Below are positions 3,217 through 31,816 of a stretch of 64,000 nucleotides of DNA, piece by piece. The stretch comes from Beijerinckiaceae bacterium (GTDB lineage: Bacteria > Pseudomonadota > Alphaproteobacteria > Rhizobiales > Beijerinckiaceae). The stretch spans positions 3,271 through 67,270 of the forward strand of contig SCSF01000072.1 in assembly GCA_004298435.1 (NCBI GenBank), in the 5' to 3' direction. A program made the position numbers and the translations under genes. Under the pieces are notes generated by a model, which made no database searches, was not told the origin of the DNA, and saw only the letters and a program-made list of their open reading frames with translations. Position 1 is the stretch's first letter. Each line of letters starts with the position of its first letter.

Positions 3217-3289
3217 TCGCGCCGCTCTCCCGCCGATGTGCCGCTACATCACCTCAGTCAGCTCGCGCTTTCCCTGTCCGCTCGGCGGC

Positions 3290-5310: not shown

Positions 5311-5351
5311 ACGAACCTTCCAATCATCGACCTCAGGAAAGGACGTCTTCT

Positions 5352-7334: not shown

Positions 7335-7341
7335 GGCAAGC

Positions 7342-7788
7342 ATGCCGTCACCGAAAAAGAAGGCTCAGATCTCGGTCTACCTCGATCCGGAGGTGATGCG
7401 GTCCCTCTCGGTCTTTGCCGCGCGTCGGGGGCAACCGATGTCGCTGATCGCCGAGGCGGCTATCGCATCGTTCCTGTCGCCGGATGCCGATGAGCGGCGA
7501 GAGGCGGCGATCGCGAAGCGGCTCGACCAACAGGATCGGCGTTTGGCGCGGATCGAGCGTGATGTGGGTATCGCTGTCGAGACACTCGCGCTGTTTATCC
7601 GCTTCTGGCTCACGACCACGCCGTCATTGCCTGAACCAGCCGCCAAGGCGGCGCGGGCGCAGGCCGGAACACGCTACGACAACTTCGTCGGCGCGCTTGG
7701 CCGGCGCCTCAGCCAGGGGCCTAAGCTCCGCCAGGAGATCCCCGACGATGTGCGGGAAGATCCGACTCGATCAACTGACGCCGACTAG
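7342..7788 (+). CDS. CopG/RHH-family DNA-binding protein
   Basis: QISVYLDP...SLIAEAAIASFLSPD; conserved traG-trbB position. Confidence 0.85.
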   Translation: MPSPKKKAQISVYLDPEVMRSLSVFAARRGQPMSLIAEAAIASFLSPDADERREAAIAKRLDQQDRRLARIERDVGIAVETLALFIRFWLTTTPSLPEPAAKAARAQAGTRYDNFVGALGRRLSQGPKLRQEIPDDVREDPTRSTDAD

Positions 7789-7979
7789 ACCCAATCCCGA
7801 ATAACCGGAGCAACACCTACGCCGTCCAATCAGACGCCGCACCCAGCAAGTCTTTTTTCTCTCCTCTACGCCGGGCCACTACGCCATCTGAATACTTGTT
7901 GAAGCGCCCCATTTCTTATCTCTTCTAATCGTCCCCGTTGCTAGTCGCGTCTCGCGATTGGCCAATGACGGGGACGACC

Positions 7980-8978
7980 GTGGCGGTCACACCACTTCAT
8001 TCCGAGGCCTTCTCCCGCGGTGCGCGCATGCTGCGCACCGCGCTCGGTCCCGCCATCGCCGCCTTCCTCGAAGACCCCTCGATCGTCGAGGTGATGCTCA
8101 ACCCCGACGGCCGGCTCTGGATCGACCGGCTGTCGGGCGGCCTCGAAGATACTGGTCGCACCCTCTCCGCCGCTGACGGCGAGCGGATCGTGCGCCTGGT
8201 GGCGCACCACGTCGGCGCCGAGGTCCATGCGGAGCGGCCGCGCGTCTCGGCCGAGCTGCCCGAGACGGGAGAGCGGTTCGAGGGCCTGTTGCCGCCGGTG
8301 GTGGCCGCGCCGGCTTTTGCGATCCGCAAGCCCGCCGTCGCCGTCTTCACCCTCGACGACTATGTCGCCGCCGGCATCATGCTGGCCGGCCAGGCCGCGG
8401 TGCTCCGCGCCGCCGTGGCTGATCGCAAGAACATCCTCGTCGCCGGCGGCACCTCGACCGGCAAGACCACACTCACCAACGCCCTCCTGGCTGAGATCGC
8501 CGGCACCACCGACCGCGTGGTGTTGATCGAGGACACCCGCGAGCTGCAATGCCGCGCGCCCAACCTTGTGGCGCTCCGTACCAAGGACGGCGTCGCCTCG
8601 CTCTCCGATCTGGTCCGCTCCTCGCTGCGCCTGCGCCCCGATCGCATCCCGATCGGCGAGGTGCGCGGCGCGGAGGCGCTGGACCTTTTGAAGGCCTGGG
8701 GCACCGGCCACCCCGGCGGCATCGGCACGATCCACGCCGGCACCGCGCTCGGCGCGATGCGCCGCCTCGAGCAGCTCATCCAGGAAGCCGTCGTCACCGT
8801 CCCCACGGCGCTAATCGCCGAGACTATCGATCTCGTCGCGGTGCTGCGCGGGCGCGGCAGCGAACGCCGCCTTTCCGAACTCGCACTCATCGCCGGTCTC
8901 GATCCCGCCACCGGCGATTACCGCGTCCAGTCCGCCGGGGCGGGCGGCGACCTCTTGCCCCCCGGAGACCCATCATGA
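7980..8978 (+). CDS. trbB: Conjugal transfer ATPase TrbB (VirB11)
   Basis: [29 protein letters not shown]; GTG start chosen from the GGGGA RBS. Confidence 0.95.
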
Positions 8979-9316
8979 TCCGTGTTCTCGCTGTCGCTCA
9001 TTCTTCGCGTCGCCGCGTGGCCGAGCTCGTTACGCTCGCGACCCTGACGCTCGCCTTCGCCCCGGCGGCTTACGCCTCCGGCTCCTCCATGCCGTGGGAG
9101 ACCCCGCTCAACTCCATACTGGAGTCGGTGCAAGGGCCCGTCGCGAAGATCATCTCGGTCATCATCATCACCGTGACCGGCCTGACGCTCGCCTTCGGCG
9201 ACACGAGCGGCGGCTTCCGCCGGCTGATCCAGATTGTGTTTGGCCTGTCGATCGCCTTCGCCGCGTCGAGCTTCTTCCTCTCCTTCTTCTCGTTCTCCGG
9301 CGGAGCGCTGGTCTGA
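8975..9316 (+). CDS. trbC: Pilin TrbC/VirB2
   Basis: SMPWETPLNSILES...GPVAK; two hydrophobic helices. Confidence 0.9.
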   Translation: MIRVLAVAHSSRRRVAELVTLATLTLAFAPAAYASGSSMPWETPLNSILESVQGPVAKIISVIIITVTGLTLAFGDTSGGFRRLIQIVFGLSIAFAASSFFLSFFSFSGGALV

Positions 9317-9591
9317 TGGCCGCGATCGTCGATCCCGACGTGCCCGGCTTCTTCGCGCCGGTCCATCGCGCGCTTACCGACCCAATTCTGATGGGCGGCG
9401 CGCCGCGGACCGTCGCGATCGCCAACGGCACGCTCGCCGCGGCGATCGCCCTCGGCCTGCGGCTCTGGATCCCCGGCGCGCTGATCTGGGCGGTAGGTCA
9501 CACCGCGGCCGTCTGGGCGGCGAAGCGCGATCCGCAGTTCGTCGACGTGGTGCGCCGGCACCTTCGTTACCCAGCCTATCTCGGCGTCTGA
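9316..9591 (+). CDS. trbD: TrbD/VirB3
   Basis: PVHRALTDPILMGGAPR...RDPQF. Confidence 0.9.
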   Translation: MAAIVDPDVPGFFAPVHRALTDPILMGGAPRTVAIANGTLAAAIALGLRLWIPGALIWAVGHTAAVWAAKRDPQFVDVVRRHLRYPAYLGV

Positions 9592-9598
9592 GGCTCCG

Positions 9599-12037: not shown

Positions 12038-12771
12038 TCAAGCTGCGCCATCTGGCGGCGGCAAGCGCCGCCGTGCTCACCCTGGCCGTCGCCGTGCCAC
12101 CCGCCTCGGCGCAGTGGATCGTCTACGACCCGACCAACTTCGGCCAGAACGTGCTCACCGCCGCGCGCGAGCTGCAGCAGATCAACAATCAGATCACGAT
12201 GCTGACCAACCAGGCGACGTCGCTGGTCAACCAGGCGCGCAACCTTGCAAACCTGCCGATGTCGACGTTGACCCAGCTTCAGTCGTCGATCGCCCAGACC
12301 CAGTCACTGCTAGGTCAGGCGCAGAACATCGCCTTCAACGTCCAGCGCATCGAGCAGGCCTATTCGACGAGCTACGGTTCGGCCGCCGGCACAGGTTCGA
12401 CCACCGCCATGGTCGCCAACGCGCAGACCCGCTGGCAGAACTCCGTCGCCGCCTTCGAGGACAGCCTGAAGGTACAGGCGGGCGTGGTCGGCAACATCCC
12501 GACGAACTCCAGTGCGATGACCTCGCTAGTCACGGCCAGCCAGAGCGCCACCGGCGCGCTGCAGGCGGCACAGGCCGGCAACCAACTCTTGGCGCTGCAA
12601 TCTCAGCAGCTTTCCGATCTCGTCGCCGTGCTGTCGGCCAAGAGTCGGGCCGACGCCCTGGAGCAGGCACGTACCGCCTCGGCCGAGGCGCAAGGCCAGC
12701 AGAACTACAAGACCTTCTCGACGCGCACCGGCTATCAGCCCGGAAACGTCACCATGTTCAGCGGCAACTGA
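12034..12771 (+). CDS. trbJ: TrbJ (VirB5-like)
   Basis: Signal peptide, VYDPTN, Q-rich helical body. Confidence 0.9.
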   Translation: MIKLRHLAAASAAVLTLAVAVPPASAQWIVYDPTNFGQNVLTAARELQQINNQITMLTNQATSLVNQARNLANLPMSTLTQLQSSIAQTQSLLGQAQNIAFNVQRIEQAYSTSYGSAAGTGSTTAMVANAQTRWQNSVAAFEDSLKVQAGVVGNIPTNSSAMTSLVTASQSATGALQAAQAGNQLLALQSQQLSDLVAVLSAKSRADALEQARTASAEAQGQQNYKTFSTRTGYQPGNVTMFSGN

Positions 12772-12780
12772 GGCGCGGCG

Positions 12781-13110
12781 ATGCTGGGACGGTCGGAAAT
12801 CTTCCGCGCCGCCGCGATCGTCGCCCTGATCGCGGTCGCTATCACGGCTCTTGTGGTGACCAACCGGCGCCACTCGGCCCCCATTGCCGAGACCCCTCCG
12901 ACCATCGTCACACCAGCATCCGACGACCTCTCGGCCGAGCTGCGCCGTTGCAGCGCGCTCGGTCCCCAGGATGCCGAAGATCCGCATTGCGTCGCGGTCT
13001 GGGAGGAGAACCGCCAGCGATTCTTCGGCAGGCCGGCGCGGCCTCTGCCGCCACAAACGCCCCCAGGCGCTGCCGCGCCGGCCACCCCTTCTAAGGGAGA
13101 TGCGCGATGA
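12781..13110 (+). CDS. trbK: TrbK-alt putative entry-exclusion protein
   Basis: Between trbJ and trbL; TM helix then LRRC...C...WEENRQRFFG. Confidence 0.75.
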   Translation: MLGRSEIFRAAAIVALIAVAITALVVTNRRHSAPIAETPPTIVTPASDDLSAELRRCSALGPQDAEDPHCVAVWEENRQRFFGRPARPLPPQTPPGAAAPATPSKGDAR

Positions 13111-14468
13111 ACAACGTCGGCGTCATCGACACCTTCCTCAACACCTTCACCACCTACATCGATTCCGGCTTCGGCCTGATCAAGGGCGAAGTCGGCTATC
13201 TCTCGTCCACGCTGATCGTCATCGACATCACCCTGGCAGGCCTGTTCTGGGCCTGGGGCGCCGACGAGGACATCCTCCAGCGCCTGGTGAAGAAGACCCT
13301 CTACATCGGCTTCTTCGCCTTCATCATCAACAACTTCAACAATCTATCGGCCATCGTCTTCAACAGCTTCGCCGGCCTCGGCCTGAAGGCGGGCGGCTCG
13401 TCTATCAGCACCGCCGACTTCCTGCGGCCGGGCAAGCTCGCCCAGGTCGGGCTCGACGCCGGACAGCCGCTGCTCGATGCGGCCAACCAGATGATGGGCT
13501 TCACCAGCTTCTTCGCGAACTTCGTGCAGATCGCGGTGCTGATGGTCTCGTGGGTCCTGGTGCTGATCGCCTTCTTCATTCTGGCGGTTCAGCTGTTCGT
13601 CACGCTGATCGAATTCAAGCTGACCACACTGGCCGGCTTCATCCTCATTCCCTTCGCGCTCTTCAACAAGACCGCCTTCCTCGCTGAGAAGGTGCTCGGC
13701 AACATCGTCGCGTCCGGCATCAAGGTGATGGTGCTCGCCGTCATCGTCGGCATCGGCACTGGGCTCTTCTCGCAGTTCACGCAGACCTACGCCGGCGGCC
13801 AGCCGACGGTCGAGCAAGCGCTGTCCGTCGTGCTGGCCGCCCTCGCCATGCTGGGCCTCGGCATCTTCGGCCCCGGCATCGCCACAGGCCTGGTCTCCGG
13901 CGCGCCCCAGCTCGGCGCGGGCGCCGCCGTCGGGACTGGCCTGGCCGTCGCGGGTACGGCGATGGCCGGCGCCGGCGCGCTCGGCCTGGCCGGCAGGGGG
14001 GCGATGGCTGCGGCTTCCGGCACTGCCGCCGCCGCGCGCGGTGGGGCGGCAATGGCCGGCGGCGCGTCCTCCGCCTACAGCCTTGCTTCAGCCGGCCGGT
14101 CCGGCGCGTCGGGCGTCGCGGCCGGACTCGGCGGGGTCGGGCGAGCGGCCGCTTCAGCCGCCGCGGCTCCTGTGCGGCGCGGCGCCGCTCAAGCCGGCAG
14201 TTCGATGCGGGAAAGCTTCGCCGCCGGCGGCCGGTCCAGTTTCGCTGCAACCGGCGGATCATCGACCGGAGGGACGGTCGGCGGCAATTCACCAAGCACG
14301 CCCGCGGCGCCCACCGGCGGATCGGAGGGTTCCGGCCCACCGGCCTGGGCCCAGCGCATGAAGCGCAACCAGTCGATCGTCCACGGGACGCAGACCGCTG
14401 CGCAGGTCCTCAGGTCCGGCGACAGCCATGGCGGCGGCCATTCCGTCGATCTCTCTGGAGGAGAATAA
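13107..14468 (+). CDS. trbL: TrbL (VirB6)
   Basis: IDTFLNTFTTYIDSGFGL, EFKLTTLAGF, G/A-rich tail. Confidence 0.93.
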   Translation: MNNVGVIDTFLNTFTTYIDSGFGLIKGEVGYLSSTLIVIDITLAGLFWAWGADEDILQRLVKKTLYIGFFAFIINNFNNLSAIVFNSFAGLGLKAGGSSISTADFLRPGKLAQVGLDAGQPLLDAANQMMGFTSFFANFVQIAVLMVSWVLVLIAFFILAVQLFVTLIEFKLTTLAGFILIPFALFNKTAFLAEKVLGNIVASGIKVMVLAVIVGIGTGLFSQFTQTYAGGQPTVEQALSVVLAALAMLGLGIFGPGIATGLVSGAPQLGAGAAVGTGLAVAGTAMAGAGALGLAGRGAMAAASGTAAAARGGAAMAGGASSAYSLASAGRSGASGVAAGLGGVGRAAASAAAAPVRRGAAQAGSSMRESFAAGGRSSFAATGGSSTGGTVGGNSPSTPAAPTGGSEGSGPPAWAQRMKRNQSIVHGTQTAAQVLRSGDSHGGGHSVDLSGGE

Positions 14469-14471
14469 GAG

Positions 14472-15161
14472 ATGGCGCTGTTTCGCCGCCCCACCGTTCG
14501 CTACGGTCGAACGCCCGAGCCTGAAACCCCCTATCAGCGCGCCGCCCAGGTGTGGGACGACCGCATCGGCTCGGCTCGGGTGCAGGCCAAGAACTGGCGG
14601 CTGATGGCCTTCGGCTCGCTCGCGCTGTCCATGGGTCTCGCCGGCGGTCTCGTCTGGCAATCGACCCACGGCACCATCGTCCCCTGGGTCGTGCAGGTCG
14701 ACAAGCTCGGCCAGGCGCAGGCCGTCGCGCCCGCCGCCGCCGACTACACGCCCAGCGATCCGCAAGTTGCCTGGTATCTTGCGCACTTCATCCAGATCGT
14801 CCGGTCGCTGCCGGCCGATCCGATCATCGTGCGGCAGAACTGGCTGCAGGCCTACGACTTCACCACCACCTCGGGCTCCCAAGCGCTCAACGACTATGCG
14901 CGCGCCAACGACCCCTTCGCCAAGCTCGGCAAGCAGCAGATCGCCATCGACGTATCTAGCGTGATCCGCGCGTCGCCCTCGAGCTTCCGCGTCGAATGGG
15001 TCGAGCATCGCTATCAAGACGGCGCGCTCGCCGACAACACCCGTTGGACCGCGATCCTCACCATCGCGATCCAGACGCCGACTTCCGCCGACGTGCTCCG
15101 CAAGAACCCGCTCGGAGTCTACGTCACCGCCATCAACTGGTCGAAGGAGCTAGGACAATGA
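14472..15161 (+). CDS. trbF: TrbF (VirB8-like)
   Basis: ETPYQRAAQVWDDRIG, NPLGVYV. Confidence 0.93.
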   Translation: MALFRRPTVRYGRTPEPETPYQRAAQVWDDRIGSARVQAKNWRLMAFGSLALSMGLAGGLVWQSTHGTIVPWVVQVDKLGQAQAVAPAAADYTPSDPQVAWYLAHFIQIVRSLPADPIIVRQNWLQAYDFTTTSGSQALNDYARANDPFAKLGKQQIAIDVSSVIRASPSSFRVEWVEHRYQDGALADNTRWTAILTIAIQTPTSADVLRKNPLGVYVTAINWSKELGQ

Positions 15162-16231
15162 CCTCGCCGATTTCCATGGAAGCCGGCGGTCCGGCTTCGC
15201 GTCTCTTCACCATTCAGCAGAGCCGGAAAGGAGGGATTGCGCCTTTCCGTAAAGCCGCCCTGGCGGCTTTGCTGATGTCCGCCACTACGCTGGGCGGCTG
15301 CGCGCACAATTTCATTCCGCCCGACATCAATTACGACAGCGCGGCGCCGGCAAAGCTCACCGTCGATCCGCCAGCGCCTATCAAGATCGTGGAGTTGCCC
15401 AAGCTGCTGCCGCTGCCCGGGCAACTGAAGCCGATCGACGGTGGCAAGCCGACACCCGAAGCTGCCGACCCGACCGTGCGCGTCAACCAGGCCAACGCTG
15501 CCGCGCGGATTCAGCCGGTGCGCAACGGCTTCATCAACGCGGTCCAGGTCTATCCGTTCTCCGGCGGGGCGCTCTACCAAGTCTATACGGCGCCCGGCGA
15601 GATTACCGACATCGCGCTGCAGGACGGCGAGCAGCTCGTCGGCTCCGGCCCCGTCGCCGCCGGCGACACCGTGCGCTGGATTATCGGCGATACCGAGAGC
15701 GGCACGGGCGCCACCAAGAAAGTTCACATCCTGGTCAAGCCGACGAGACCCGAGCTGCTCACCAATCTGGTCATCAACACGGATCGGCGGACCTACCTCC
15801 TCGAGCTGCGCTCGACCGAGAAGACCTACATGGCCTCGGTCTCCTGGCAGTATCCCGAAGATCAGCTCATCGCGCTTCGGCGGCAGAACCAGGAGGCCGA
15901 CGCAGCCGCGCCGATTGCCAGCGGCGTCGATCTCGCCTCGATCAACTTCCGTTATGCAATCCAGGGCGACAACCCGGCCTGGCGTCCGCTGCGCGCCTTC
16001 GACGACGGGCACAAGGTCTACATCGAGTTCCCGAGCGGCATTGCCCAGGGCGAGATGCCGCCACTGTTCGTCATCGGACCGGCCGGCGGCTCCGAGCTGG
16101 TGAATTACCGAGTCAACCGCAACTATTACATCGTCGACCGCCTGTTCGCAGCCGCCGAATTGCGTCTCGGCGACAAGGATAGCGAGCGGCGCGTGCGCAT
16201 CGTTCGCACCGATGGAAGGCCGCGGTCATGA
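15158..16231 (+). CDS. trbG: TrbG (VirB9-like)
   Basis: Lipobox-like LGGC, GPVAAGDTVRW, TNLVINTDRRTY, FDDGHKVYIEF. Confidence 0.93.
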   Translation: MTSPISMEAGGPASRLFTIQQSRKGGIAPFRKAALAALLMSATTLGGCAHNFIPPDINYDSAAPAKLTVDPPAPIKIVELPKLLPLPGQLKPIDGGKPTPEAADPTVRVNQANAAARIQPVRNGFINAVQVYPFSGGALYQVYTAPGEITDIALQDGEQLVGSGPVAAGDTVRWIIGDTESGTGATKKVHILVKPTRPELLTNLVINTDRRTYLLELRSTEKTYMASVSWQYPEDQLIALRRQNQEADAAAPIASGVDLASINFRYAIQGDNPAWRPLRAFDDGHKVYIEFPSGIAQGEMPPLFVIGPAGGSELVNYRVNRNYYIVDRLFAAAELRLGDKDSERRVRIVRTDGRPRS

Positions 16232-17433
16232 CGGCGGAAGGTCCTGAAGAACAACCGCCGACGCCGACGCCCGTCGTACCGCCCGATCTGCGGCTTCGGG
16301 GCGAACGGCCGCGCGTCACACGCTTGTCGCGCAGGGTGCTGATTGGCCTGGGCGCCGTTTCGGCGCTCGCCGTCGCGGGCGCGCTCGGCTACGCGCTCCA
16401 GACTCGCAACGCGGCGCAGAGCGGCCAGGAGCTGCTTTCCACGCAGAACCGTCCCTCCGCCGAGGGCCTCGCTGGCCTGCCGAAAGACTATACCGGCCTG
16501 CCACGCCAGGCGCCCCCGCTTGGCCCGCCGCTGCCCGGCGATCTCGGCAAGCCAATCCTGAACGCAGGGGCAGCGCCGAACACGGTAGCGCCCGCGACCA
16601 CGCCTGATCCGGAGGCGCAGCGCCGGGCCCAAGAGATCGAGGCGGCGCGGCTCAGCCGCCTCTTTGCCCAGACCAATCAGCAGCCCCAGCCCGTCGGGCT
16701 CGCCGCGCCGGCTGGGATCGGGACGACGACGGGTCCGACTCCCGCACCGCCAGTCGACGCCGGCGCCGCGCAGAACATGCAGGACCGCAAGACGACCTTC
16801 CTCAATGCGTCGACGGACAAGCGCACGGTCAGTCCAGACCGGCTCGACGCGAAGGCCTCGCCTTATGTCGTGCAGGCCGGCACTGTGATTCCCGCCGCGC
16901 TCATCACGGGCATTCGTTCCGATCTGCCTGGTCAAATCACTGCCCAGGTGACGGAGGCGGTCTATGACAGCCCGACCGGCAAATATCTTCTGATCCCGCA
17001 GGGCGCGAAGCTGATCGGCCAATACGACAGCTCCGTCGCTTTCGGGCAGTCGCGCGTCCTGCTGGTTTGGACCCGGATCATCATGCCGGATGGCGGCTCG
17101 ATCGTGCTGGAGCGTCAGGCCGGCGCCGACACGCAGGGCTACGCCGGACTAGAGGACGAGGTCGACAACCATTGGGGCATGCTGTTTAAGGCCGCCGTGC
17201 TCTCGACGCTGCTCAGCGTTGGCGCCGAGGCAGGCACCAGCCAGAATGAGAACAACCTCGTGCAGGCGATTCGCAGCGGCGCGTCCAACAGCATCAGCCA
17301 GACAGGCCAGCAGATCGTCCAGCGCCAGCTCAACATCCAGCCGACCTTGACCATCCGGCCGGGCTTCCCGGTCCGTGTTATCGTCACGCGCGATCTCGTG
17401 CTGGCGCCCTACGGACGGGGAGCAACGCCATGA
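16228..17433 (+). CDS. trbI: TrbI (VirB10)
   Basis: AGTVIPAALITGIRSDLPG, GYAGLED, PTLTIRPG. Confidence 0.95.
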   Translation: MTAEGPEEQPPTPTPVVPPDLRLRGERPRVTRLSRRVLIGLGAVSALAVAGALGYALQTRNAAQSGQELLSTQNRPSAEGLAGLPKDYTGLPRQAPPLGPPLPGDLGKPILNAGAAPNTVAPATTPDPEAQRRAQEIEAARLSRLFAQTNQQPQPVGLAAPAGIGTTTGPTPAPPVDAGAAQNMQDRKTTFLNASTDKRTVSPDRLDAKASPYVVQAGTVIPAALITGIRSDLPGQITAQVTEAVYDSPTGKYLLIPQGAKLIGQYDSSVAFGQSRVLLVWTRIIMPDGGSIVLERQAGADTQGYAGLEDEVDNHWGMLFKAAVLSTLLSVGAEAGTSQNENNLVQAIRSGASNSISQTGQQIVQRQLNIQPTLTIRPGFPVRVIVTRDLVLAPYGRGATP

Positions 17434-18921: not shown

Positions 18922-19617
18922 TCACATGGCCAACGCCGGAACCCAGAAAAAATAGGCGTTCAGCATATAGAGCCCCGACGCAATCAGCGTCACGCCGCCC
19001 AATGTCTCGAAGGCACGCCGATACGCGGCCAAGCCGTGTAAATTCTCGAGCCAGCCGATGCTGATAGCGCCAAGAGCGACTGGAAGGGCGCGGCCTACGG
19101 CAAACGCGAGCAGAAGAACCGCCCCAGTCCAGGGTGAGCCGAGTCCTGCCGCCGCCCCGAGCAGCACGACGAGCGCCGGCGTGCAGAACGGACAGACCGC
19201 GATCGAGAACACCGCGCCAAGGACGAACGCGCCCCATGAGGCAGTGGGACGTCTCGCTCTCAATGCGAATGCTGGTAGCGGCAGGCGAACCCATCCCGCC
19301 CAGGTGAGCCCGAGAATGATCAAGAGCGGGCCGAGGACGAGCCCCCAACCTCGACCCACGAGAGACGCTACCCAGTGGCCGCCTAGTCCGGCAACGAAGC
19401 CCAATGCCGCGTGGGTGACAAGCATGCCAAGGATGAACAGCGCTGCGAAGAGGATTGCCTGCTTCCTCTCGCGGGCTCTGGTCACGTAGGCGAGCGATAC
19501 CGGAATTGAGGCTAGCGCCACCGGATTGAAGCTGAAGACCAGGCCGGTCAAGAAGCCGATGCCGACGGCCGCTATGCCGGCCTGCTCAACCGCCTGTCGG
19601 AGTGCATCGGGTTCCAT
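18922..19617 (-). CDS. CcdA/DsbD-like membrane protein
   Basis: Six hydrophobic segments; GLVFSFNP, FSIAVCPFCTP, LAFAVGRALP motifs. Confidence 0.8.
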   Translation of the reverse strand: MEPDALRQAVEQAGIAAVGIGFLTGLVFSFNPVALASIPVSLAYVTRARERKQAILFAALFILGMLVTHAALGFVAGLGGHWVASLVGRGWGLVLGPLLIILGLTWAGWVRLPLPAFALRARRPTASWGAFVLGAVFSIAVCPFCTPALVVLLGAAAGLGSPWTGAVLLLAFAVGRALPVALGAISIGWLENLHGLAAYRRAFETLGGVTLIASGLYMLNAYFFWVPALAM

Positions 19618-19618: not shown

Positions 19619-19879
19619 TTATTTCCCCGGCGCGCTTCGACGGATCAACGCGTCGCGCAGCTGATGCGGCGTGGGTAGGGAGGAGAACAGGAGCTCGCCA
19701 TCAACGACCACTGCTGGGAGGGTCAGCACGCCGAGTTCGACCGCGTGATCCAGATCCTTGAGCACATTCAGTTCGTGCCATTCGATGCCCGTGACCGTTC
19801 GTTCTGCGACGGCCTTGAGACCCTCTCGCGCGGCAGCGCATTGAGTGCAACCTGGAGAATAAAACAATTCGATTTTCAT
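19619..19879 (-). CDS. Small thioredoxin/glutaredoxin-fold protein
   Basis: FYSPGCTQC CxxC; LPAVVVDG cis-Pro region. Confidence 0.85.
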   Translation of the reverse strand: MKIELFYSPGCTQCAAAREGLKAVAERTVTGIEWHELNVLKDLDHAVELGVLTLPAVVVDGELLFSSLPTPHQLRDALIRRSAPGK

Positions 19880-19882: not shown

Positions 19883-20302
19883 TCAGTGAGCCTGCCTCGT
19901 CACGTCGGCTTGGTCCAAGGCCGCCAAAATCGTGCATTCCTCGACCGGATGCGTTTCATTGGCGCAATCGGCAATGAGGTAATCGAGCGCCTTGGACATG
20001 GACTTCATCGCGCGGATTTTGTGTTCGAGTTGAAGTTTCTTTTCGATCGCGTGCTTGCGAACATCACCGCAACAGGCGGCATCGCGGCTCCGCAGGATGA
20101 GAAGCTCGCGGATTTCCGCAAGCGTGAAACCGCAATGCTGGGCCTGCTTGATGAAGTGGATACGCCGCGCGGAATCCTTGTCATAGAGCCGGTAGCCGCT
20201 TTCACTCCTATCGGCCGGATCGATCAATTTTTCCCGCTCGTAGTAGCGCAGTGTGTCGACGCTGACTTCCGCCAGTGCCGCGAGTTTGCCGATCGTCAAC
20301 AT
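19883..20302 (-). CDS. MerR-family metal sensor, ZntR/CadR type
   Basis: MerR HTH (TIGKLA..DTLRYYE); C77/C78, C113, H118, C123 reproduce the ZntR ligand spacing. Confidence 0.9.
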   Translation of the reverse strand: MLTIGKLAALAEVSVDTLRYYEREKLIDPADRSESGYRLYDKDSARRIHFIKQAQHCGFTLAEIRELLILRSRDAACCGDVRKHAIEKKLQLEHKIRAMKSMSKALDYLIADCANETHPVEECTILAALDQADVTRQAH

Positions 20303-20384: not shown

Positions 20385-21653
20385 CTAGGATTTCGATCGG
20401 ACGTCCGCGCCAGCCTGAGTCACCCCGGCGGCGGATGGAACCGCTTGGGACGGAACCTCGGAACGGAACAAGGCGAAGGACAACACCGCGAGGATCAGCT
20501 CAATGACTGCAAACAGTCCAAACGCGACCCCAAAACCGAACCGAAGCAGCGCGCCGAAGATGAGGCTTCCGAGACCGAAGCCGACAAAGAGCGTGAAGAC
20601 GTTCAAGCCCATTGCCTGCCCGGCGCGTTTGCCGCCGAGGGAGGTGACGATTCCCCCGAAGAGCGGCTGGGTCATGTCGTAGCCCAGGGACAGGACCATC
20701 GCGACGACGGGGGCGAGGATCATCGGAAAGCCGAGCAGCAGAGCGGCCGCCGCGACGGCGCTCAGAACGAGGCCAATCGGTATCAATCGGGCGCGGCCCC
20801 AGCGATCGGCCGCTCGGCCGATCACCGGCCCGAACAGGAAGCCCGGCACGCCATAGCCGAGGAGGGCCAAGCCGATACCGACGGGTCCAATGCCGTATTG
20901 CCGCTCGAAATACACGCCGAGCCAGGTGAACACGCCGGAATGGAACATGGAGTTGACCAGGACATAGCCGTAGGTGCGCTGCCCGCGCGGTGTGCCAAGC
21001 AGATCCTTGTAGCTACGAAAGAGGTCCCGCAGCGTGCCTGTCACCGGCTGAACCGCGGCGGCAATGACAGCTCGATAAGGCAGGAGAACCAGGAGGAGCA
21101 CCGCACCGGCCGCGCCGACAGCGACGAACAGACCTTGCCAGCCGACGAACGGCACGATCATCGCGCCCAGCGGTGAACCGAACGCCATGCCGCCGGCCAT
21201 CGCGCCGAACAGCCAGCCAAGCGGTCGGCCCCGCTGTTCGTAGGGATAGAGTCGGCCCACCAGCGCCAACGCGAGCGGAACCACGCCGCCTGCGCCGATC
21301 CCGGTCGCCATCCGCCACAGCGCCAGCTGTTCAATGGAGTGCGCTGTTGCGGTCAGGATCGTGAGCGCCGCGAACGCCGCGAGGGACGTAAACATCACGC
21401 GGTGGATGCCGAGCCGATCCGCCAGAAGGCCATACGCGAGGGTCGCGATTCCATAGGGGATCAAGTATGCCGGCACGATGAGCCCGACCGTCTCTACCGA
21501 CGTTCCGAACGTATTCGACAGCGCCGGTATGATCGGCGCCACCATGTAGGCTTGGAAAAAGATGATGAAGGTTGCCGCCGCGAGCATCCTGAGGAGCCGC
21601 TCGCGCTGGCGCTCGCCGATCGCCGCCGGCATCGTTTGCTGAACTTCAGTCAT
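20385..21653 (-). CDS. MFS transporter
   Basis: 12 hydrophobic segments; GLLADRLG and GRAADRWGR motif A. Confidence 0.92.
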   Translation of the reverse strand: MTEVQQTMPAAIGERQRERLLRMLAAATFIIFFQAYMVAPIIPALSNTFGTSVETVGLIVPAYLIPYGIATLAYGLLADRLGIHRVMFTSLAAFAALTILTATAHSIEQLALWRMATGIGAGGVVPLALALVGRLYPYEQRGRPLGWLFGAMAGGMAFGSPLGAMIVPFVGWQGLFVAVGAAGAVLLLVLLPYRAVIAAAVQPVTGTLRDLFRSYKDLLGTPRGQRTYGYVLVNSMFHSGVFTWLGVYFERQYGIGPVGIGLALLGYGVPGFLFGPVIGRAADRWGRARLIPIGLVLSAVAAAALLLGFPMILAPVVAMVLSLGYDMTQPLFGGIVTSLGGKRAGQAMGLNVFTLFVGFGLGSLIFGALLRFGFGVAFGLFAVIELILAVLSFALFRSEVPSQAVPSAAGVTQAGADVRSKS

Positions 21654-21666: not shown

Positions 21667-24132
21667 TCAGACCGCCTGCACTGACGCGGACGCGATCGGG
21701 CGCCCCACGCTGCGGATCGCGTCGAAAAAGAGCCGCGGGCTGCCCCACAGCGAGTTGAAGAAGATCGCCGTGACGCTCACCGCCATTGCAACCATCGCCC
21801 ATATCGGGTGGATCAGGCCGGTGGCGGCGAGCGGAATGCCGGCGCCGTTGAAGAGGAAGGCCAGCACGACGTTTTGAACCATCTTCCCATAGCTCCGGCG
21901 GCTGATGTCACGGGCGATGGGGAGCGCAGCCAAGCGGTTCGACAGGATGATGATGTCCGCCGCCTCGATCGCGATATCGGTGCCGCCGCCCATGGCGATG
22001 CCGATATCGGCTTGCATGAGCGCCGGCGCGTCGTTGATGCCGTCGCCGACCATCGCCACGCGGGCCTTGGCTTGCATCTCCCGCACGATCCCGGCCTTGT
22101 CCTGCGGCAGCACGCCCGAATGCACCTGGTCAACACCGACCTCGCGCCCGACCCGTTGCGCCGCACGGTCGTTGTCGCCCGTGACCAGGATCGTCTTGAG
22201 ACCGGCATTGCGCAGTGCCGCGACAGTCGAGATGGCGTCGGGTCGGAGCGTATCGCCCAAAGCGACGACACCCAGCGCGACCCCATCCCGCGCGACGGCG
22301 ATCACGGTGCGTCCTTTGGCTTCGAGAGCTTCGATGGTGTTGTGAAGATGTGTGAGGTCGATGTTTCGGCTGGTAAGAAACCGCGGGCTTCCGACAAGAA
22401 CCTCGCCGGCGTCGATGCGCGCGACGACACCCTTTCCAGGGAACGCCTCGAATGATGTGACATCCGGCGGCGTCGCACCGCGCTCGAACGCCGCCTTGAC
22501 CACGGCCTGGGCGAGCGGGTGCTCCGAAGACGCTTCGGCGGCGGCAGCAATTGCGAGAAGCTCCGTCTCCCTTACCTCGACGGCTTCGATCTCACGCACG
22601 ACGGGGCGGCCCTCGGTGAGCGTGCCCGTCTTGTCGAACACGATTTGTTTCACCGTGCGGAAGCCCTGGAAGGCTTCGCCCGTCCGCATCAGGATGCCGT
22701 GCTCGGCGGCCTGGCCGGCGCCGCGCACGATGGAGAGCGGCGCCGAGATGCCGACGGCACAGGGATAGCCCATCACGAGCACGCTGAGGCCGGCGAAGAC
22801 CGCGCGTTCAACGTCAATCTGTCCGGTGCCGAGCCAGGAGCCGACGAGCCAGCCAATGACCGCAAGGGCGGCGATCCCAAGGACGGTCGGGGTATAGACC
22901 CGCAGCACGCGGTCGACGAGATGGAGGAGGCCTGGCTTCAGTGCCCGCGCGTCCTCGACATGGCGGATCACCTGGTGCAGGAAGCTGCCTTCGCCGACCG
23001 CCGTGATCGTCACCAGGAGCGTGCCGGTGCCGTTGATCGAGCCGCCGATGACCGCATCGCCCTCGGTCTTTTCGACCGGAATCGACTCGCCGGTCACCAA
23101 CGATTGATCGACCCCCGAGCGACCGCTCACGACCGTGCCATCGACAGGCACCCGCTCGCCTGGGCGAATGCGCACGAGGTCGCCAACTTTGACGTCCTCG
23201 ATCGGCACTTCGACCTCCGCGGTCCCACGCACGACGCAGGCGGTCTCCGGCTGCAGATCGAGGAGACGCTTCACCGCCTGCGAACTCCGTGTCTTGACGA
23301 TGAGCGACAGCCACTCCGAGAAGATGTGGTACGTGCCGACCATCACCGAGACCGCGAAGAACGGCGCGGTCGGATAGCCAGGCCGGTTGAGCACGAGCCC
23401 TATGATGCCGCCGGCCATGCCCGCGAACGCGCCGATCTCGAGCAGCACATGCTGGTTGATAATGCCGCGCCGAAGTGCCTGGAAGGCCATGTGGAGGATG
23501 TGCCGCCCGATGCCGAATATGAGGACAACGGCCAGGGCACCAGCGAGCCATGGCGCGACCCCGGTCAAATATCCCTCCAGATTGAGATAGAGCAAGGAGA
23601 GCGCCATGACGACGAGGCCCGAGAAGGCCCCAATAGCCACCCACAACCCGGTCGAGCGCAGGACCAGGAAGACGAACCCGCCCAGGCTCAGGCACACCAG
23701 CGCCGGCAGAAAGCCGATCCAGCCCACCTGGGGATCCGCGATGATCGGGATGGAGGCAACGCTGAGCACGACGGCGAGGACGAAGCGCCGGGCCTCACGC
23801 ACGAGATCGCGCTCTTCTTCTTCGAACCCCCTGAGCTTGCGGGGGTCGGAGATGGTGTAGCCGATGTCACGGAGGGTCTGCAGCAACTCCTCAGGGCGGG
23901 CGATGGCCGGGTCGTATTCGACGAGCGCCTGCTCGTGCGTCAGACTCACTGCCACCTTGTCGACGCCGGGCATTCGCCCGAGTGCCTTCTCGATGGTGCC
24001 GGTGCAGAGGGAGCAATGGAGCCCACCGATCCGCGCCCGGATCTTCCGACGGTCAGCCCTGGTCGAGGGCTCTTCGCTCCACGGCCGGAACGAGGATGGA
24101 ACTGTTGTCGCGACACGCATCGTCATCTCCAT
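21667..24132 (-). CDS. Heavy-metal P1B-type ATPase with non-canonical YPC motif
   Basis: HMA GLHCSLC, TGES, DKTGT, SEHP, GDGINDAPAL; TM6 GYPCAVGIS. Confidence 0.93.
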   Translation of the reverse strand: MEMTMRVATTVPSSFRPWSEEPSTRADRRKIRARIGGLHCSLCTGTIEKALGRMPGVDKVAVSLTHEQALVEYDPAIARPEELLQTLRDIGYTISDPRKLRGFEEEERDLVREARRFVLAVVLSVASIPIIADPQVGWIGFLPALVCLSLGGFVFLVLRSTGLWVAIGAFSGLVVMALSLLYLNLEGYLTGVAPWLAGALAVVLIFGIGRHILHMAFQALRRGIINQHVLLEIGAFAGMAGGIIGLVLNRPGYPTAPFFAVSVMVGTYHIFSEWLSLIVKTRSSQAVKRLLDLQPETACVVRGTAEVEVPIEDVKVGDLVRIRPGERVPVDGTVVSGRSGVDQSLVTGESIPVEKTEGDAVIGGSINGTGTLLVTITAVGEGSFLHQVIRHVEDARALKPGLLHLVDRVLRVYTPTVLGIAALAVIGWLVGSWLGTGQIDVERAVFAGLSVLVMGYPCAVGISAPLSIVRGAGQAAEHGILMRTGEAFQGFRTVKQIVFDKTGTLTEGRPVVREIEAVEVRETELLAIAAAAEASSEHPLAQAVVKAAFERGATPPDVTSFEAFPGKGVVARIDAGEVLVGSPRFLTSRNIDLTHLHNTIEALEAKGRTVIAVARDGVALGVVALGDTLRPDAISTVAALRNAGLKTILVTGDNDRAAQRVGREVGVDQVHSGVLPQDKAGIVREMQAKARVAMVGDGINDAPALMQADIGIAMGGGTDIAIEAADIIILSNRLAALPIARDISRRSYGKMVQNVVLAFLFNGAGIPLAATGLIHPIWAMVAMAVSVTAIFFNSLWGSPRLFFDAIRSVGRPIASASVQAV

Positions 24133-24210: not shown

Positions 24211-24426
24211 TCAGTGCCGACCCGCGACGCGAAAGCCGGGCTTTTGGATCGCCGCCACGAGGCGATCCTCGCCGGTACTTTGCGGGTCATAGAGGATGCG
24301 GGCTTGACCTTCTTCGAACGAGACCGTTGCCATCTGCACGCCTGGCTCACTTTCGACCAGGGTCTTGATGGTATTGGCGCAGCCATCACAGTTCATGCCT
24401 TCGATCTTGAAAGTTGCCGTTTTCAT
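24211..24426 (-). CDS. HMA-domain metallochaperone (CopZ-like)
   Basis: IEGMNCDGC motif; 71 aa; GGAG RBS. Confidence 0.9.
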   Translation of the reverse strand: MKTATFKIEGMNCDGCANTIKTLVESEPGVQMATVSFEEGQARILYDPQSTGEDRLVAAIQKPGFRVAGRH

Positions 24427-24624
24427 ATTTTGCTCCATTACAGGTACTATCGGCATAGCCAGATAGCTTTCTCCACTGTTTGCGTCCGAGTGTATCTGCT
24501 CAATCTTCACGTGAGGGGCACACTCGGTAACTTGCGGCGCATGGCGCTGCGGCAAGTGAGCCTCCGGTGGCGTTAGGACCTGAGAACACTTGACCTCACA
24601 GCATGGCCATACCGCGACAGTTCA

Positions 24625-24656
24625 ACGCTAGGCCTTGGAGTTAACTCCAGAGTCAA
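24625..24656 (-). promoter_or_regulatory. Second MerR-type 20-bp-spacer promoter/operator
   Basis: Minus strand TTGACT-N20-TAGCGT with dyad GGAGTTAACTCC in the spacer. Confidence 0.8.
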
Positions 24657-24824
24657 GCGGATTCCGCCACGTCTCGGCGAGCCTGATGATGGCGGTTGTT
24701 GCCGCGCTGCGAGCAGAGCTGAAACTGAGATCCTGCGCGTTCACGAAGGCTTGGTGAGTATTTTCGGCAGAAGACGGTCTCGATCGGCAATAATCGGTTG
24801 AGTATCAAGAGCGGCCATTCGACT

Positions 24825-25058
24825 AGGGAGCGGCAGGCCACTGGGGTTGAAGATGCGGGTCTCGGTGCCGAAGGCTTCAAGAAGGCGCGCGGCCTCCTGG
24901 GCCTGCAGCCGGCTGAAAGACCGCTCGCGCAGAAAGCCGTACAGCAACAGGATGCGCGGTGGGTGCGTCGGCGCGTGCGGCAGTAGCGCAGCCGTCGTCG
25001 GACGTTCGAAAGCATCAGGCTCGATGTTCGGCACATCCACCAAGTCAGGCGCCTGCAT
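24825..25058 (-). pseudogene. arsH: 5' fragment of ArsH (NADPH-dependent FMN reductase)
   Basis: PNIEPDAF...THPPRILLLYGFLRERSFSR...EAARLLEAFGTETRIFNPSGLPLP, then similarity stops. Confidence 0.8.
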
Positions 25059-25940
25059 CAACGCGCCTCTTTGACGATACGCGGTGCTACTTGGCCGCCA
25101 AGTCGGGTTCGTCCCTGAACGCTGGGTCTGCGAGCGCAGCTTCGTAGGCGAGTTTGGCCGATTGCTCGTCGCCGAGCGCGGAGAAGGCGTTTCCGATCGT
25201 GTAGTGCAAGCTGCCGGCATGGTGGCGGCCGCCGTCGAGCTTGGATCGAAAGTAGCCGATCGCCTCCTCAATCCGTTGCGGGTGTTGGCTCATACTCGGC
25301 ATCCCGAGGTTGATCTCGGCCATGTAGCAGGGACCCATCGAGTCGCTACTGGCGCCGAGCGCTGCCCCAAATTTGTCGAACCCGGCGCTGATCACTTCGT
25401 CAGCACCTTGTTCGTAGAGCCGCCTCAAGATCTGGCCAGCCCGCTCCGGATCCTCCGGGACATGGACATCTGGAGCAGCCCTCAGAACCTGCCGGGGCAG
25501 ATCCGCCGGGCTCGCGCCGGATTGTTCGATCCGTCGCTCGCGCGAAGACCTCGCCCCCGATTGCGCGAGTGCCGCGAGCCGGACGAGGCGCCCGATGGTC
25601 AACTCCTCGACGAAGGAGACCGTCAGCGATTGCTGCTCGGTCCACGTCTTCCCGCTGTGTTCGTACTGGCGAAGGACGCTGTCGACGGGGCAGATGCGCA
25701 GCGAGCCTGTCGGCACATGATAGCAGGCGTAGAAGCTGTACCCCTGCATCAGCAGATAGTTCAGGTTGGTGCGACGCATCTCAACGCTGAGCGACCCGTC
25801 CGCATTTAGCGCCCGCTCCGTTCCCTTCCCTTAAGTTGGACCTGGACCCTGACATTCGTGGCCCGACCGTCGTCGATCTGGACTTACCCGGAAAAAATGG
25901 AGGGACTTTCTGCTAGCGTTTAACGCGACAGGAGGACCCG

Positions 25941-26231
25941 ATGGGCAAGCAGGAACGACGGATTTTCACGGAGGATTTCAAGAAGGAAGCGGTGCGCCTA
26001 TGCGAAACGAGCGGCCGCACAATCTCACAAGTCGCCGATGATCTGGGGATCGGGCTATCGACGCTGACACGGTGGAAGAGACGTTATCGGGAAGCCGACC
26101 TACTGGCCGGTCCGCATGAGGATACAACCAAGGAACTGACACGACTGCGCAAAGAGAACGAACTGCTTCGCCAGGAGCGTGAGATTTTGAAGCGGGCCGC
26201 AACTTTTTTCGCCAAGGAGGGAAGTCGATGA
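25941..26231 (+). CDS. IS3 OrfA (HTH)
   Basis: FTEDFKKEAVRL...QVADDLGIGLSTLTRW; coiled-coil tail. Confidence 0.93.
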   Translation: MGKQERRIFTEDFKKEAVRLCETSGRTISQVADDLGIGLSTLTRWKRRYREADLLAGPHEDTTKELTRLRKENELLRQEREILKRAATFFAKEGSR

Positions 26232-27094
26232 GATTCAAGCTCATTGATGAGGCGAAGAAGGAATTCCCCGTGCATCGTCTATGCAGTGTCCTTGACGTCA
26301 GCGAGAGCGGGTATTTTGCTTGGAAGAGGCGGCCTGCCAGCCGCCGGCAAAATGAAGATCTGGTGCTGCTGGCGCACATCCGCTCGCAGTTCTCAATGTC
26401 CAACGAGACTTACGGCGCGCCACGCATGCACGTCGAGCTCAAAGAAGACGGCCTCGCTATTGGCCGTCACCGCGTTGCCCGCTTGATGCGCGACAATGGC
26501 CTGAAGGCACTACAAAAGCGGCGCTACAAGAAAACAACGGACAGCGGCCATGCCAGCCCAGTCGCCGCCAACCTGCTGGATCAGGACTTTATATGCGATA
26601 GAACCGATCAAAAATGGGGCGTCGATATCAGCTATATCTGGACGGCCGAAGGCTGGCTCTACTTGGCAATCGTGCTTGATCTCCATTCCCGGCGCATCAT
26701 CGGATGGGCGACGAGCAACAGGTTGAAGAAAGACCTGGCGCTGAATGCCCTGCGGCGAGCGATTGCGTTACGCCAGCCGCGGCCAGGCCTGATTCATCAT
26801 TCCGACCGCGGAAGTCAGTACTGTTCTCATGATTACCAGAAACTATTGAAGGCGCACGGTATGACGGTCTCGATGAGCGGCAAGGGTAATTGCTTTGACA
26901 ATGCCATGGTCGAAACCGTGTTCAAGACGATCAAAAACGAGTTGGTCTGGAGAACGATCTTCCAGACTCGCACAGCCGCCGAACGGGCCCTTGGCCGATA
27001 CATCGACGGCTTCTACAATCCTCGCCGGCGACACTCCGCATTGGGGTATAAATCGCCGACGGCATTCGAGGCCGAAATGGCCATCACAGAGTGA
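26228..27094 (+). CDS. IS3 OrfB DDE transposase
   Basis: WGVDISYI, HHSDRGSQY, CFDNAMVETVF; lies in the -1 frame relative to orfA. Confidence 0.95.
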   Translation: MRFKLIDEAKKEFPVHRLCSVLDVSESGYFAWKRRPASRRQNEDLVLLAHIRSQFSMSNETYGAPRMHVELKEDGLAIGRHRVARLMRDNGLKALQKRRYKKTTDSGHASPVAANLLDQDFICDRTDQKWGVDISYIWTAEGWLYLAIVLDLHSRRIIGWATSNRLKKDLALNALRRAIALRQPRPGLIHHSDRGSQYCSHDYQKLLKAHGMTVSMSGKGNCFDNAMVETVFKTIKNELVWRTIFQTRTAAERALGRYIDGFYNPRRRHSALGYKSPTAFEAEMAITE

Positions 27095-30904: not shown

Positions 30905-31816
30905 CTACATGCTGCGCCGCGCAGGCTTGATGAGCAGGGTCGTGATCCGCGGTTGTGCTGCGCGAATACGATGTTCGAGTTTTTCGACGAGACTTTCGAC
31001 GTCGCCGGCGCCCAGCGAATCGTCGAAATCGACGCCAAGGGCCGCCACGATCTGATCCGGCGCAAGGTGAATCGTGAAAAGCGTGTGTGCGCTCGTGACG
31101 CCCGCGGTGCTGCGCGCCATGTCGAGGATCGCGGTTACAGTGCCGGCATCGGCGCTCTCGCCGATCAGCAGATTCTTGCTCTCGCGGGCGAGGATGATGG
31201 CGACGCCACCAAGCAGCAGACCGATTCCGATCGAGGCGATCCCGTCGAAGATCGGCATATGAAGCATTTCGCTCGCCAGAATGCCCGCGAAGGCGAAAAC
31301 CAGGCCGATGAGATCGGCGCTGTCTTCCAGCAGCACGATGAATCCCGGCGGATCCTTGCTTTTTTCGATCGCTTCCATCCAGCCAAGCGCGCCTTTGGCT
31401 TCCCGGAAAGCGCGGAAGGCGACGATCCATGACGAGCCTTCGAAAAGGAAAGCCGCGCCGAGGACAATATAATTGACGTAGCTGCTGGAGATGGGTTCGG
31501 GCGCGAGAATGTGGGCAATGCCCTCGTAAATGGAGAGCCCCGAACCGACCGCGAAAATCAGCAGAGCGACGATGAAGCTCCAGAAATAGAGCTCTCTGCC
31601 GTGCCCCAGCGGATGCAATTCGTCTGGCGGCAATGCCGCGCGATGCTGGCCGTAAAGGAGCAGAGCCTCATTGCCACTGTCGACCAGCGAATGCACGGCC
31701 TCGCTCAGCATGGCCGAACTGCCGGTAAACAGCGCCGCTGCAAATTTGGTCAGCGTAACCAGAAGATTGGCTGCAAGAGCCACGATAACGACGACTTTGG
31801 AAGAGGCGCCGCTCAT
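30905..31816 (-). CDS. Cation diffusion facilitator transporter
   Basis: SEAVHSLVD (HxxxD), HPLGHGRE, LEDSAD. Confidence 0.9.
   Translation of the reverse strand: MSGASSKVVVIVALAANLLVTLTKFAAALFTGSSAMLSEAVHSLVDSGNEALLLYGQHRAALPPDELHPLGHGRELYFWSFIVALLIFAVGSGLSIYEGIAHILAPEPISSSYVNYIVLGAAFLFEGSSWIVAFRAFREAKGALGWMEAIEKSKDPPGFIVLLEDSADLIGLVFAFAGILASEMLHMPIFDGIASIGIGLLLGGVAIILARESKNLLIGESADAGTVTAILDMARSTAGVTSAHTLFTIHLAPDQIVAALGVDFDDSLGAGDVESLVEKLEHRIRAAQPRITTLLIKPARRSM

Follow-up and report, generated by a model that had tools for sequence, protein, structure and literature searches.

The pumps closest to the one described here are the Cu(I) ATPases of group P1B-1, represented by CopA of Archaeoglobus fulgidus, Legionella pneumophila and Escherichia coli and by ATP7A/B, followed by the P1B-2 pumps for Zn/Cd/Pb(/Hg), ZntA and CadA, which stand under the regulators ZntR and CadR. 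The membrane ligands of A. fulgidus CopA are Cys380, Cys382, Tyr682, Asn683, Met711 and Ser715, and the P1B-2 sites are defined by a Lys in membrane helix M5 and an Asp in M6. Mercury is the textbook exception among toxic metals: in the accepted view, resistance comes from import and reduction through the mer system and involves no dedicated efflux pump. The classical mer system imports and reduces Hg(II), and we know of no ATP-driven pump within it. Here, we report an analysis of a P1B ATPase gene in 64,000 nucleotides (nt) of DNA from a Beijerinckiaceae bacterium (Alphaproteobacteria; assembly GCA_004298435.1, contig SCSF01000072.1, positions 3,271 to 67,270), hereafter the window, in which the CPC motif of the copper pumps is replaced by YPC, and of the YPC family of pumps to which the gene belongs.

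The gene occupies positions 21667-24132 of the minus strand, an open frame of 821 amino acids (aa) that we examined with Pfam, NCBIfam, HMMER alignments and an AlphaFold model. The identical database protein and most homologues have 817 aa and begin four codons later, so the true start is likely the Met four codons in, at 24120. The translation contains GLHCSLC in an N-terminal HMA domain (C40/C43), TGES, GYPCAVGIS, DKTGT with the phosphorylation site D500, SEHPLA, GDGINDAP, LAFLFNGAGIP and HPIWAMVAMAVSV, with 44 residues from GYPCAVGIS to DKTGT. Pfam recognizes HMA (1e-14), E1-E2_ATPase (2e-51) and Hydrolase (2e-36), and the NCBIfam model of heavy-metal P-type ATPases, TIGR01525, gives 562.8 bits, above its cutoff of 346.25. 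The features of P1B membership, namely DKTGT, TGES, HP, GDGxNDxP, an xPC in a broken M4 and a cytoplasmic HMA domain, are all present, and the gene encodes an intact P1B ATPase with all catalytic motifs. A preliminary description of this DNA had pointed out YPC, FN and MAVSV next to intact catalytic motifs, and the translation bears this out.

HMMER alignment with A. fulgidus CopA (3j09) matches Y456 of the M4 triplet Y456-P457-C458 with the leading Cys of CPC, and F761 of the M5 pair F761-N762 with the Tyr of YN. In the last helix, aligned by eye, MAVSV (within M780/M783/S786/V787 of M6) falls on MAMSS, and the second Ser becomes Val. The substituted CopA positions are thus Cys380, Tyr682 and Ser715, the same three ligand changes (C>Y, Y>F, S>V) that had been claimed beforehand. 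Around them, the P1B-1 spacing is exact, with N(x)6[F]N(x)4P (N754, F761, N762, P767) and P(x)6MxxS[V] (P776, M783, S786, V787), and Asn762, Met783 and Ser786 are kept.

Comparison of 62 YPC with 70 CPC sequences, in the numbering of the window's pump, shows how consistently the two groups differ. Position 456 is Tyr in 100% of the former and Cys in 100% of the latter; position 761 is Phe in 92% against Tyr in 99%; and position 787 is Val in 94% against Ser in 99%. The differences extend beyond the three changes first noticed: Gln227 replaces a Met found in 100% of CPC pumps, His228 the neighbouring Asp, and Ser276 an M2 Glu found in 94%, and Met780 is gained where CPC pumps have Ala or Gly. 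The Met and Glu replaced at 227 and 276 are, as we take it, the entry-site residues M148 and E205 of L. pneumophila CopA. Position 258 is Phe in YPC and Tyr in CPC pumps, and His66, Ser41 and Ser63 of the HMA domain are also specific to the YPC family. Neither M5 (LAFLFNGAGIP) nor M6 (AMVAMAVSVTA) contains Lys or Asp, unlike the host genome's own P1B-2 pumps, which read LGLK...DTGATV; the P1B-2 likeness scores 310 bits, compared with 441-451 for Cu pumps, and CPC is missing as well. Because four sequence features that define P1B-1 and both that define P1B-2 are absent, the pump is set apart from CopA and from ZntA and belongs, by its sequence, to a new P1B subfamily.

In the AlphaFold model, which has a predicted local distance difference test (pLDDT) score of 77 and was read for topology, the protein has P1B topology. 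As in P1B-1 pumps, helices MA and MB accompany six core helices, with N-terminal helices preceding M1, and M4 is unwound at the xPC motif, the break lying at G455-Y456-P457. The best fold matches are L. pneumophila CopA and ZntA; P1B-1 copper pumps are the best matches in sequence and fold taken together. A membrane site of this make would offer Cys458, Met780, Met783, Asn762 and Tyr456. Two extra transmembrane helices are predicted between MA and MB (residues 134-185, window about 23578-23733, minus strand); they set the proteobacterial YPC subgroup apart from P1B-1 pumps and are absent from archaeal and other YPC pumps.

The YPC motif is a family trait. GYPCA is found in 121 of 121 close homologues (82-100% identity) and FLFNG in 118 of these, and a profile built from three archaeal-looking YPC proteins retrieved 117 further clusters, all of whose representatives carry YPC, for a total of 238/238. 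The preliminary description had named confinement of YPC to this allele, through decay, as the observation that would undo its reading; this conservation rules such decay out. Among the distant homologues, 113/117 have an N-terminal CSFC, 116/117 have NQH where copper pumps have NMD, and 86/117 carry a second, C-terminal CxxC (HMA) domain; among the sources named for them are Desulfurococcales, Aeropyrum, Thermoplasmata, Bathyarchaeia, Brocadia, Nitrospirota, Bacteroidota and Actinomycetota. When the representatives of 50%-identity clusters were searched exhaustively, YPC pumps were the top matches (36-59% identity), canonical CPC pumps appearing at 40% and below. Overall, YPC pumps occur in Alpha-, Beta- and Gammaproteobacteria, Deinococcus, Bacillota, Planctomycetota, Nitrospirota, haloarchaea, Thermoprotei and Thermoplasmata, and the Tyr is encoded by both TAT and TAC among the copies. 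Many carriers are plasmids: a tblastn search found the pump on those of Nitrobacter, Afipia, Methylobacterium, Thalassobaculum, Paraburkholderia, Cupriavidus, Burkholderia, Marinobacter, Deinococcus, Leisingera and Cytobacillus and on about 20 haloarchaeal plasmids.

In a FastTree phylogeny of 135 sequences, rooted on the host genome's KdpB as sole outgroup and with P1B-2 to P1B-7 references left out, the 62 bacterial and archaeal YPC sequences form one clade with support of 100 and a stem of 0.245, placed beside and not within the bulk of the CPC pumps. On this tree, the YPC subfamily is either sister to the Cu(I) P1B-1 pumps or branches off early next to them. The homologue collection and tree proposed in the preliminary description thus recover a deep monophyletic family that is, as judged from its sequences and carriers, conserved and mobile, with a rebuilt entry and binding site. 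The description had also called the class undescribed; our literature search found no publication that pairs YPC with P1B-type ATPases or treats the family as a class, and none on a mer-linked P-type ATPase with CcdA or on a mercury P1B pump with CcdA.

The company that these pumps keep separates them further from the copper pumps. We compared open reading frames (ORFs) in all frames within 5 kb of each pump with a panel of reference proteins, for 26 non-redundant YPC loci, 33 CPC loci from the same genomes and 78 random CPC loci, the latter taken from a search with the YPC alignment seeded on DKTGT and GDGIND that also gave 2 YPC pumps. CcdA-like proteins were found at 12/26 YPC loci, compared with 1/33 same-genome and 1/78 random CPC loci (Fisher p of 8e-5 and 6e-8, respectively), and MerA at 7/26, compared with 0/33 and 0/78 (p of 0.002 and 3e-5). 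The corresponding counts are 5/26, 0/33 and 0/78 for MerT; 11/26, 0/33 and 0/78 for MerA, MerT or MerB; 15/26, 5/33 and 10/78 for MerR-family regulators; 5/26, 0/33 and 0/78 for thioredoxin-like proteins; 5/26, 0/33 and 1/78 for MFS transporters; and 8/26, 0/33 and 0/78 for a haloarchaeal winged-helix regulator. CsoR shows the opposite pattern (1/26, 3/33 and 28/78), and an HMA protein lies near 25 of the 26 YPC pumps. All MerR-type neighbours judged to be partners of a YPC pump have the three Cys of Hg/Cd/Pb-type sensors, whereas P1B-1 pumps are partnered with CsoR or CueR. The association of YPC pumps with mer genes, with CcdA-like membrane proteins bearing CxxC and with MerR-type sensors of the three-Cys kind is therefore not random. 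The link to mer genes, seen in the statistics and in the operons of relatives, is the strongest lead and does not figure in the preliminary description. Some of these MerR-family regulators (about 228 aa; loci L084, L085, L109, L110 and L111) end in a complete HMA domain, MKTxxxxIxGMHCDGCA, so that by their sequence sensor and metallochaperone domain are fused in one protein.

At several loci (L109-L111, L002, L093 and haloarchaea), the mer genes and the YPC pump form a cluster. In alphaproteobacterial relatives (68-72% identity), MerA, MerR', the CcdA-like protein and the YPC pump follow one another on one strand, with MerT 5' of MerA in L109, and in a Burkholderiaceae metagenome-assembled genome (MAG), merR and merA adjoin the pump without merT. 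The haloarchaeal unit consists of merA, the winged-helix regulator, the YPC pump and HMA. MerA exceeds the cutoff in 14/121 Halobacteria, that is, in 3/9 with a YPC pump and 11/112 without one; in the three genomes that have both genes, 5/5 YPC copies lie within 5 kb of merA.

The YPC pump is not a substitute for the canonical copper pump. Genomes were counted with a DNA pattern, YPC...DKTGT with 102 N between, that was validated on the window and gave zero matches in reversed-pattern controls. By this count, YPC pumps are sporadic (7/301 genomes of the window's class, 9/121 Halobacteria), and a CPCALGLATP-type pump accompanies them in 17/17 YPC-bearing genomes; the YPC pump is never the sole copper-type pump of its genome. 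The host genome (3.09 Mb) has a CsoR-linked canonical CopA with ACPCAMGLATP, GYN and AMAFSS, two CadA/ZntA-type pumps and KdpB. At L111 (G561:C41) and L115 (G733:C15), the two pump types share an island, with the canonical CPC pump only 4-7 kb away from its YPC counterpart.

Taking the rebuilt site and the neighbourhoods together, we suggest that the YPC pump is a functional P1B ATPase that exports a thiophilic metal, with Hg(II) as the best candidate, a claim that we hold at slightly less than an even chance. Hg(II) is the ion that we would name as probably the substrate, with a confidence that ranges from near even to clearly below it. The wider proposal, which we put forward tentatively and with more doubt than belief, is that the YPC-type subfamily is dedicated to pumping Hg(II), which would make it an eighth P1B specificity class and the first dedicated ATP-driven mercury transporter, working with HMA chaperones and CxxC CcdA-like partners, either beside MerA or as a mercury resistance module that needs no reductase and travels on plasmids and conjugative elements, in Bacteria and Archaea. 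If this is true, a widespread mobile P1B subfamily tied to mer would revise the picture of mercury resistance; otherwise, the family would show a new way in which a single Cys, a pair of Met and a Tyr can make up a soft-metal site. The family would have a new metal specificity and would extend by one class the P1B scheme by which specificity for metals is predicted from sequence. It would also correct the annotation of genes that hundreds of genomes and metagenomes now list as 'Cu+-exporting' or generic 'cation-translocating' ATPases, and the hypothesis of an Hg pump is directly testable by ordinary expression and transport assays.

In the window, the pump belongs to a tightly spaced minus-strand cassette in the order HMA protein, pump, MFS transporter, MerR-type sensor, thioredoxin-like protein and CcdA-like protein. 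The first gene (24211-24426) encodes a small cytoplasmic HMA metallochaperone of 71 aa with MNCDGC and without a signal peptide (Pfam HMA 4e-15), for which the best NCBIfam models are UxxU metal-binding protein, MerTP and CopZ, none reaching its cutoff. The MFS transporter (20385-21653, 422 aa; MFS_1 2e-50) starts 13 nt 3' of the pump. Behind the sensor gene (19883-20302), a small thioredoxin-fold protein with C-T-Q-C and no signal peptide (19619-19879, 86 aa; Thioredoxin_3) matches the NCBIfam MJ0307 and ArsE-type thioredoxin models under their cutoffs. The CcdA/DsbD_TM-like membrane protein (18922-19617, 231 aa; DsbD_TM 1.5e-13) matches an ArsG family transporter best, far under the cutoff. 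In this protein, as in those of loci L001, L083, L086 and L087, the canonical first-helix Cys is missing and the sequence reads FSFNPVALASIP; a C-P-F-C lies inside a single membrane helix, and the label that the gene bears elsewhere is 'cytochrome c biogenesis protein CcdA'. A second type, with EPCSIGS plus NIPACAAP, stands beside other YPC pumps. The CcdA-like proteins may be permeases for thiophilic metals rather than conduits of reductant.

The 139-aa sensor (Pfam MerR_1 and MerR-DNA-bind) has the general features of the MerR family: a helix-turn-helix, a dimerisation helix, a Cys at the position of ZntR 79 and MerR 82, and two Cys in the C-terminal loop. It carries Cys77/78, Cys113, His118 and Cys123, of which Cys78, Cys113 and Cys123 align with MerR Cys82, Cys117 and Cys126. 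The best NCBIfam matches are two ZntR models, at 127.9 (cutoff 143) and 116.3 (cutoff 168), and the models of MerR (107.4, cutoff 150.85), CadR/PbrR (92.4, cutoff 151.45) and CueR (90.3, cutoff 147.4) are likewise not passed. The preliminary description had called this protein a ZntR-like divalent sensor. Its MerR type, the Cys at the +2-type position and ZntR as best match all hold, whereas neither the ZntR nor the MerR(Hg) cutoff is reached; because of this, and because the three-Cys pattern is common to Hg, Cd and Pb sensors, the step from ZntR-like to divalent is only a hint.

Upstream of the cassette lies a putative MerR-type promoter/operator (24621-24660, minus strand), with TTGACT (24656-24651), a 20-nt spacer and TAGCGT (24630-24625). 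The spacer holds an imperfect dyad, ctggagtt/aactccaagg, and an inverted repeat with 17-nt arms, 76% complementary, spans 24626-24659. A standard sigma-70 scan with 16-18 nt spacing gave no match in this region, as expected for the over-long spacer of a MerR-type promoter, and 24656-24625 may well function as one. The operator presumably resembles that of zntA. A MerR-family sensor with a +2-type Cys and a long-spacer promoter are points of likeness to the P1B-2 systems. With the mer operon (merR-merT-merP-merA), the YPC loci share a three-Cys MerR-type regulator and metal binders of the HMA fold, and relatives of the pump lie within or right after mer genes; the window's cassette differs in having no reductase, MerT or MerP.

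From these parts, we infer substrate, direction of transport, regulation and partner roles as follows. A thiophilic metal, with Hg(II) as the best candidate, would enter the cytoplasm, where the three-Cys sensor bound to the spacer dyad of the promoter at 24656-24625 would switch to activation, and the six genes (HMA protein, pump, MFS transporter, sensor, thioredoxin-like and CcdA-like protein) would be transcribed as an operon. The cytoplasmic HMA protein would pass the metal to the pump, through an entry region in which Gln227, His228 and Ser276 stand in place of Met, Asp and Glu, to be bound at the rebuilt membrane site of Cys458, Met780, Met783, Asn762 and Tyr456 and expelled at the cost of ATP via phosphorylation of Asp500. 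The thioredoxin-like and CcdA-like CxxC proteins would act on thiols or metal, either at the membrane or across it.

A number of observations weigh against mercury as the substrate. Hg(II) prefers two thiolates, and a site with a single Cys and a pair of Met seems no less suited to Cu(I)/Ag(I); export of Hg(II) would also oppose import by MerT/MerP where both occur. Fifteen of the 26 YPC loci, the window included, have no mer gene within 5 kb, and some YPC copies sit in copper islands or beside cop genes. Part of the YPC set is plasmid-borne, and plasmids abound in resistance islands; the same-genome control covers only a chromosomal/MAG subset, in which MerA is near 5/14 YPC loci and 0/33 CPC loci. 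In haloarchaea, the genome-wide co-occurrence of merA and the YPC pump is a modest, only about 3-fold trend, and 6/9 YPC-bearing genomes have no merA at all. No merA, merT or merP was found in the window's cassette or within 5 kb of it; the host genome's merR-merT-merP-merA operon, with an NmerA domain, is on another contig (C163:16594-19926). A second MerA-like oxidoreductase lies just 3' of that operon (C163:20725-22047). We found no functional study, and no transport or resistance assay, of a confirmed member of the YPC clade.

The main rival to Hg(II) is a Cu(I)/Ag(I) exporter, a divergent and perhaps low-affinity or oxidation-resistant P1B-1 branch with a three-sulfur site of Cys458, Met780 and Met783, the association with mer reflecting co-selection in resistance islands; we regard it as serious and yet unlikely. 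It draws on the in-register N(x)6-N(x)4P and P(x)6MxxS motifs, the Met780 gained across the family, copies adjoining cop genes, Cu pumps as nearest solved relatives and the NCBIfam copper model TIGR01511, passed with 449.1 against a cutoff of 397; the latter is a poor discriminator, because the Cd-family model TIGR01512 is passed as well (393.7, cutoff 313.5). Against it stand the canonical CPC pump in 17/17 genomes, the replaced Met and Glu of the copper entry site, the depletion of CsoR, and the partner regulators, all with Cys at a position where CueR, as we take it, has Ser. A further point against it is CopAL6, one of ten synthesised metagenomic copA-like genes, which resembles the YPC family in having YPC in its sixth helix and HMA domains at both ends, a likeness of motif description and not of sequence. 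It made E. coli delta-copA less resistant to copper and led to more copper accumulation than any other gene of the set, in assays with copper only (PMC11082258). In favour of this rival, a copper-resistance ATPase of Sulfolobus solfataricus has been said in passing to use YPC (PMC4541151), a statement that we could trace only to an unlabelled alignment row and could not tie by sequence to the YPC clade. Against it, CPCALGLA is reported for CopA1 and CopA2 of S. metallicus (PMC3595675), of which CopA2 shares about 90% identity with the CopA of S. solfataricus, and when the solved catalytic domain of S. solfataricus CopB is compared with YPC members, it scores lower than both CopA and CopB of A. 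fulgidus. No homologue already shown to be an ordinary Cu(I) pump, the other outcome named as damaging in the preliminary description, was found in our search, and the one YPC-motif gene that has been assayed failed to rescue copper resistance.

That description leaned towards export of divalent Zn/Cd/Pb by a pump of P1B-1-like build, which now appears improbable. ZntR models are indeed the regulator's best matches, the promoter has a 20-nt spacer and an operator that we take to be zntA-like, TIGR01512 is passed, and Cys is a softer ligand than His228, His269 and Tyr456. However, the M5 Lys and M6 Asp that we take to define P1B-2 are absent, the regulator fails the ZntR and CadR/PbrR cutoffs, the host already has two CadA/ZntA-type pumps, and it is mer genes that are enriched, in a comparison whose panel did not extend to czc and cad genes. 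Hg-stimulated activity is reported for ZntA-type pumps (PMC10246665). Quite improbable, too, is inward ATP-driven uptake of a thiophilic metal, either Hg(II) for MerA or Cu/Zn. It would fit loci where merA adjoins the pump without merT or merP (L002 and haloarchaea), and the raised copper accumulation and sensitivity caused by CopAL6 (PMC11082258) are the phenotype that PMC8456098, in a passage citing Lewinson 2009, describes for HmtA of Pseudomonas aeruginosa, reportedly an inward pump. The CopAL6 phenotype could, however, reflect misfolding or metal binding, and an activator-type sensor, on at high metal, suits detoxification. The cytoplasmic HMA chaperone and N-terminal HMA domain are, in our understanding, hallmarks of exporters, and inward transport by P1B pumps is presumably poorly established as a mechanism. 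Hardly credible, finally, is a decaying or neofunctionalised CopA relic that transports nothing: the Cys-to-Tyr change takes a single G-to-A substitution, but the 821-aa frame is open with every catalytic motif, and relatives of two domains, without exception and with both Tyr codons in use, keep YPC within a monophyletic clade that has its own conserved signature. Among all these readings, export of Hg(II) is the one that we prefer.

The cassette is cargo at the edge of a mobile element, because it has a complete-looking conjugative backbone on one side and an IS3 element directly beyond its promoter, with housekeeping genes from about 29 kb on. The backbone (1-17433, plus strand) was recognized by Pfam and comprises ParA, a DUF3363 relaxase, the coupling protein TraG and TrbB/E/L/F/G/I-type proteins, followed by a LysR gene. 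The same layout of backbone and then metal cargo is seen in an alphaproteobacterial genomic island (PMC13707694). The IS3-family transposase (25941-27094, plus strand), identified from ORF translations alone, consists of overlapping orfA (25941-26231) and orfB (26228-27094) and is of the DDE type. On plasmids of Afipia carboxidovorans and Nitrobacter hamburgensis, the five genes from the pump to the CcdA-like protein have the same order at about 78% DNA identity, with an HMA gene before them and MerT after; next comes MerP on the Afipia plasmid, and on the Nitrobacter plasmid an overlapping ORF labelled 'cation transporter'. Plasmids of Paraburkholderia and Cupriavidus carry the cassette genes in another order.

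Between the cassette promoter and the IS3 element, an ORF at 24741-25271 (minus strand) weakly matches the first third only of the FMN_red domain (8e-5) and may be an arsH-like remnant; on the plasmids of Afipia and Nitrobacter, arsH occurs near the cassette. Within its chromosomal part, the window also contains a CDF cation-efflux gene (30905-31816, minus strand) and a gene for a NicO-family nickel/cobalt transporter (44382-45533, minus strand).

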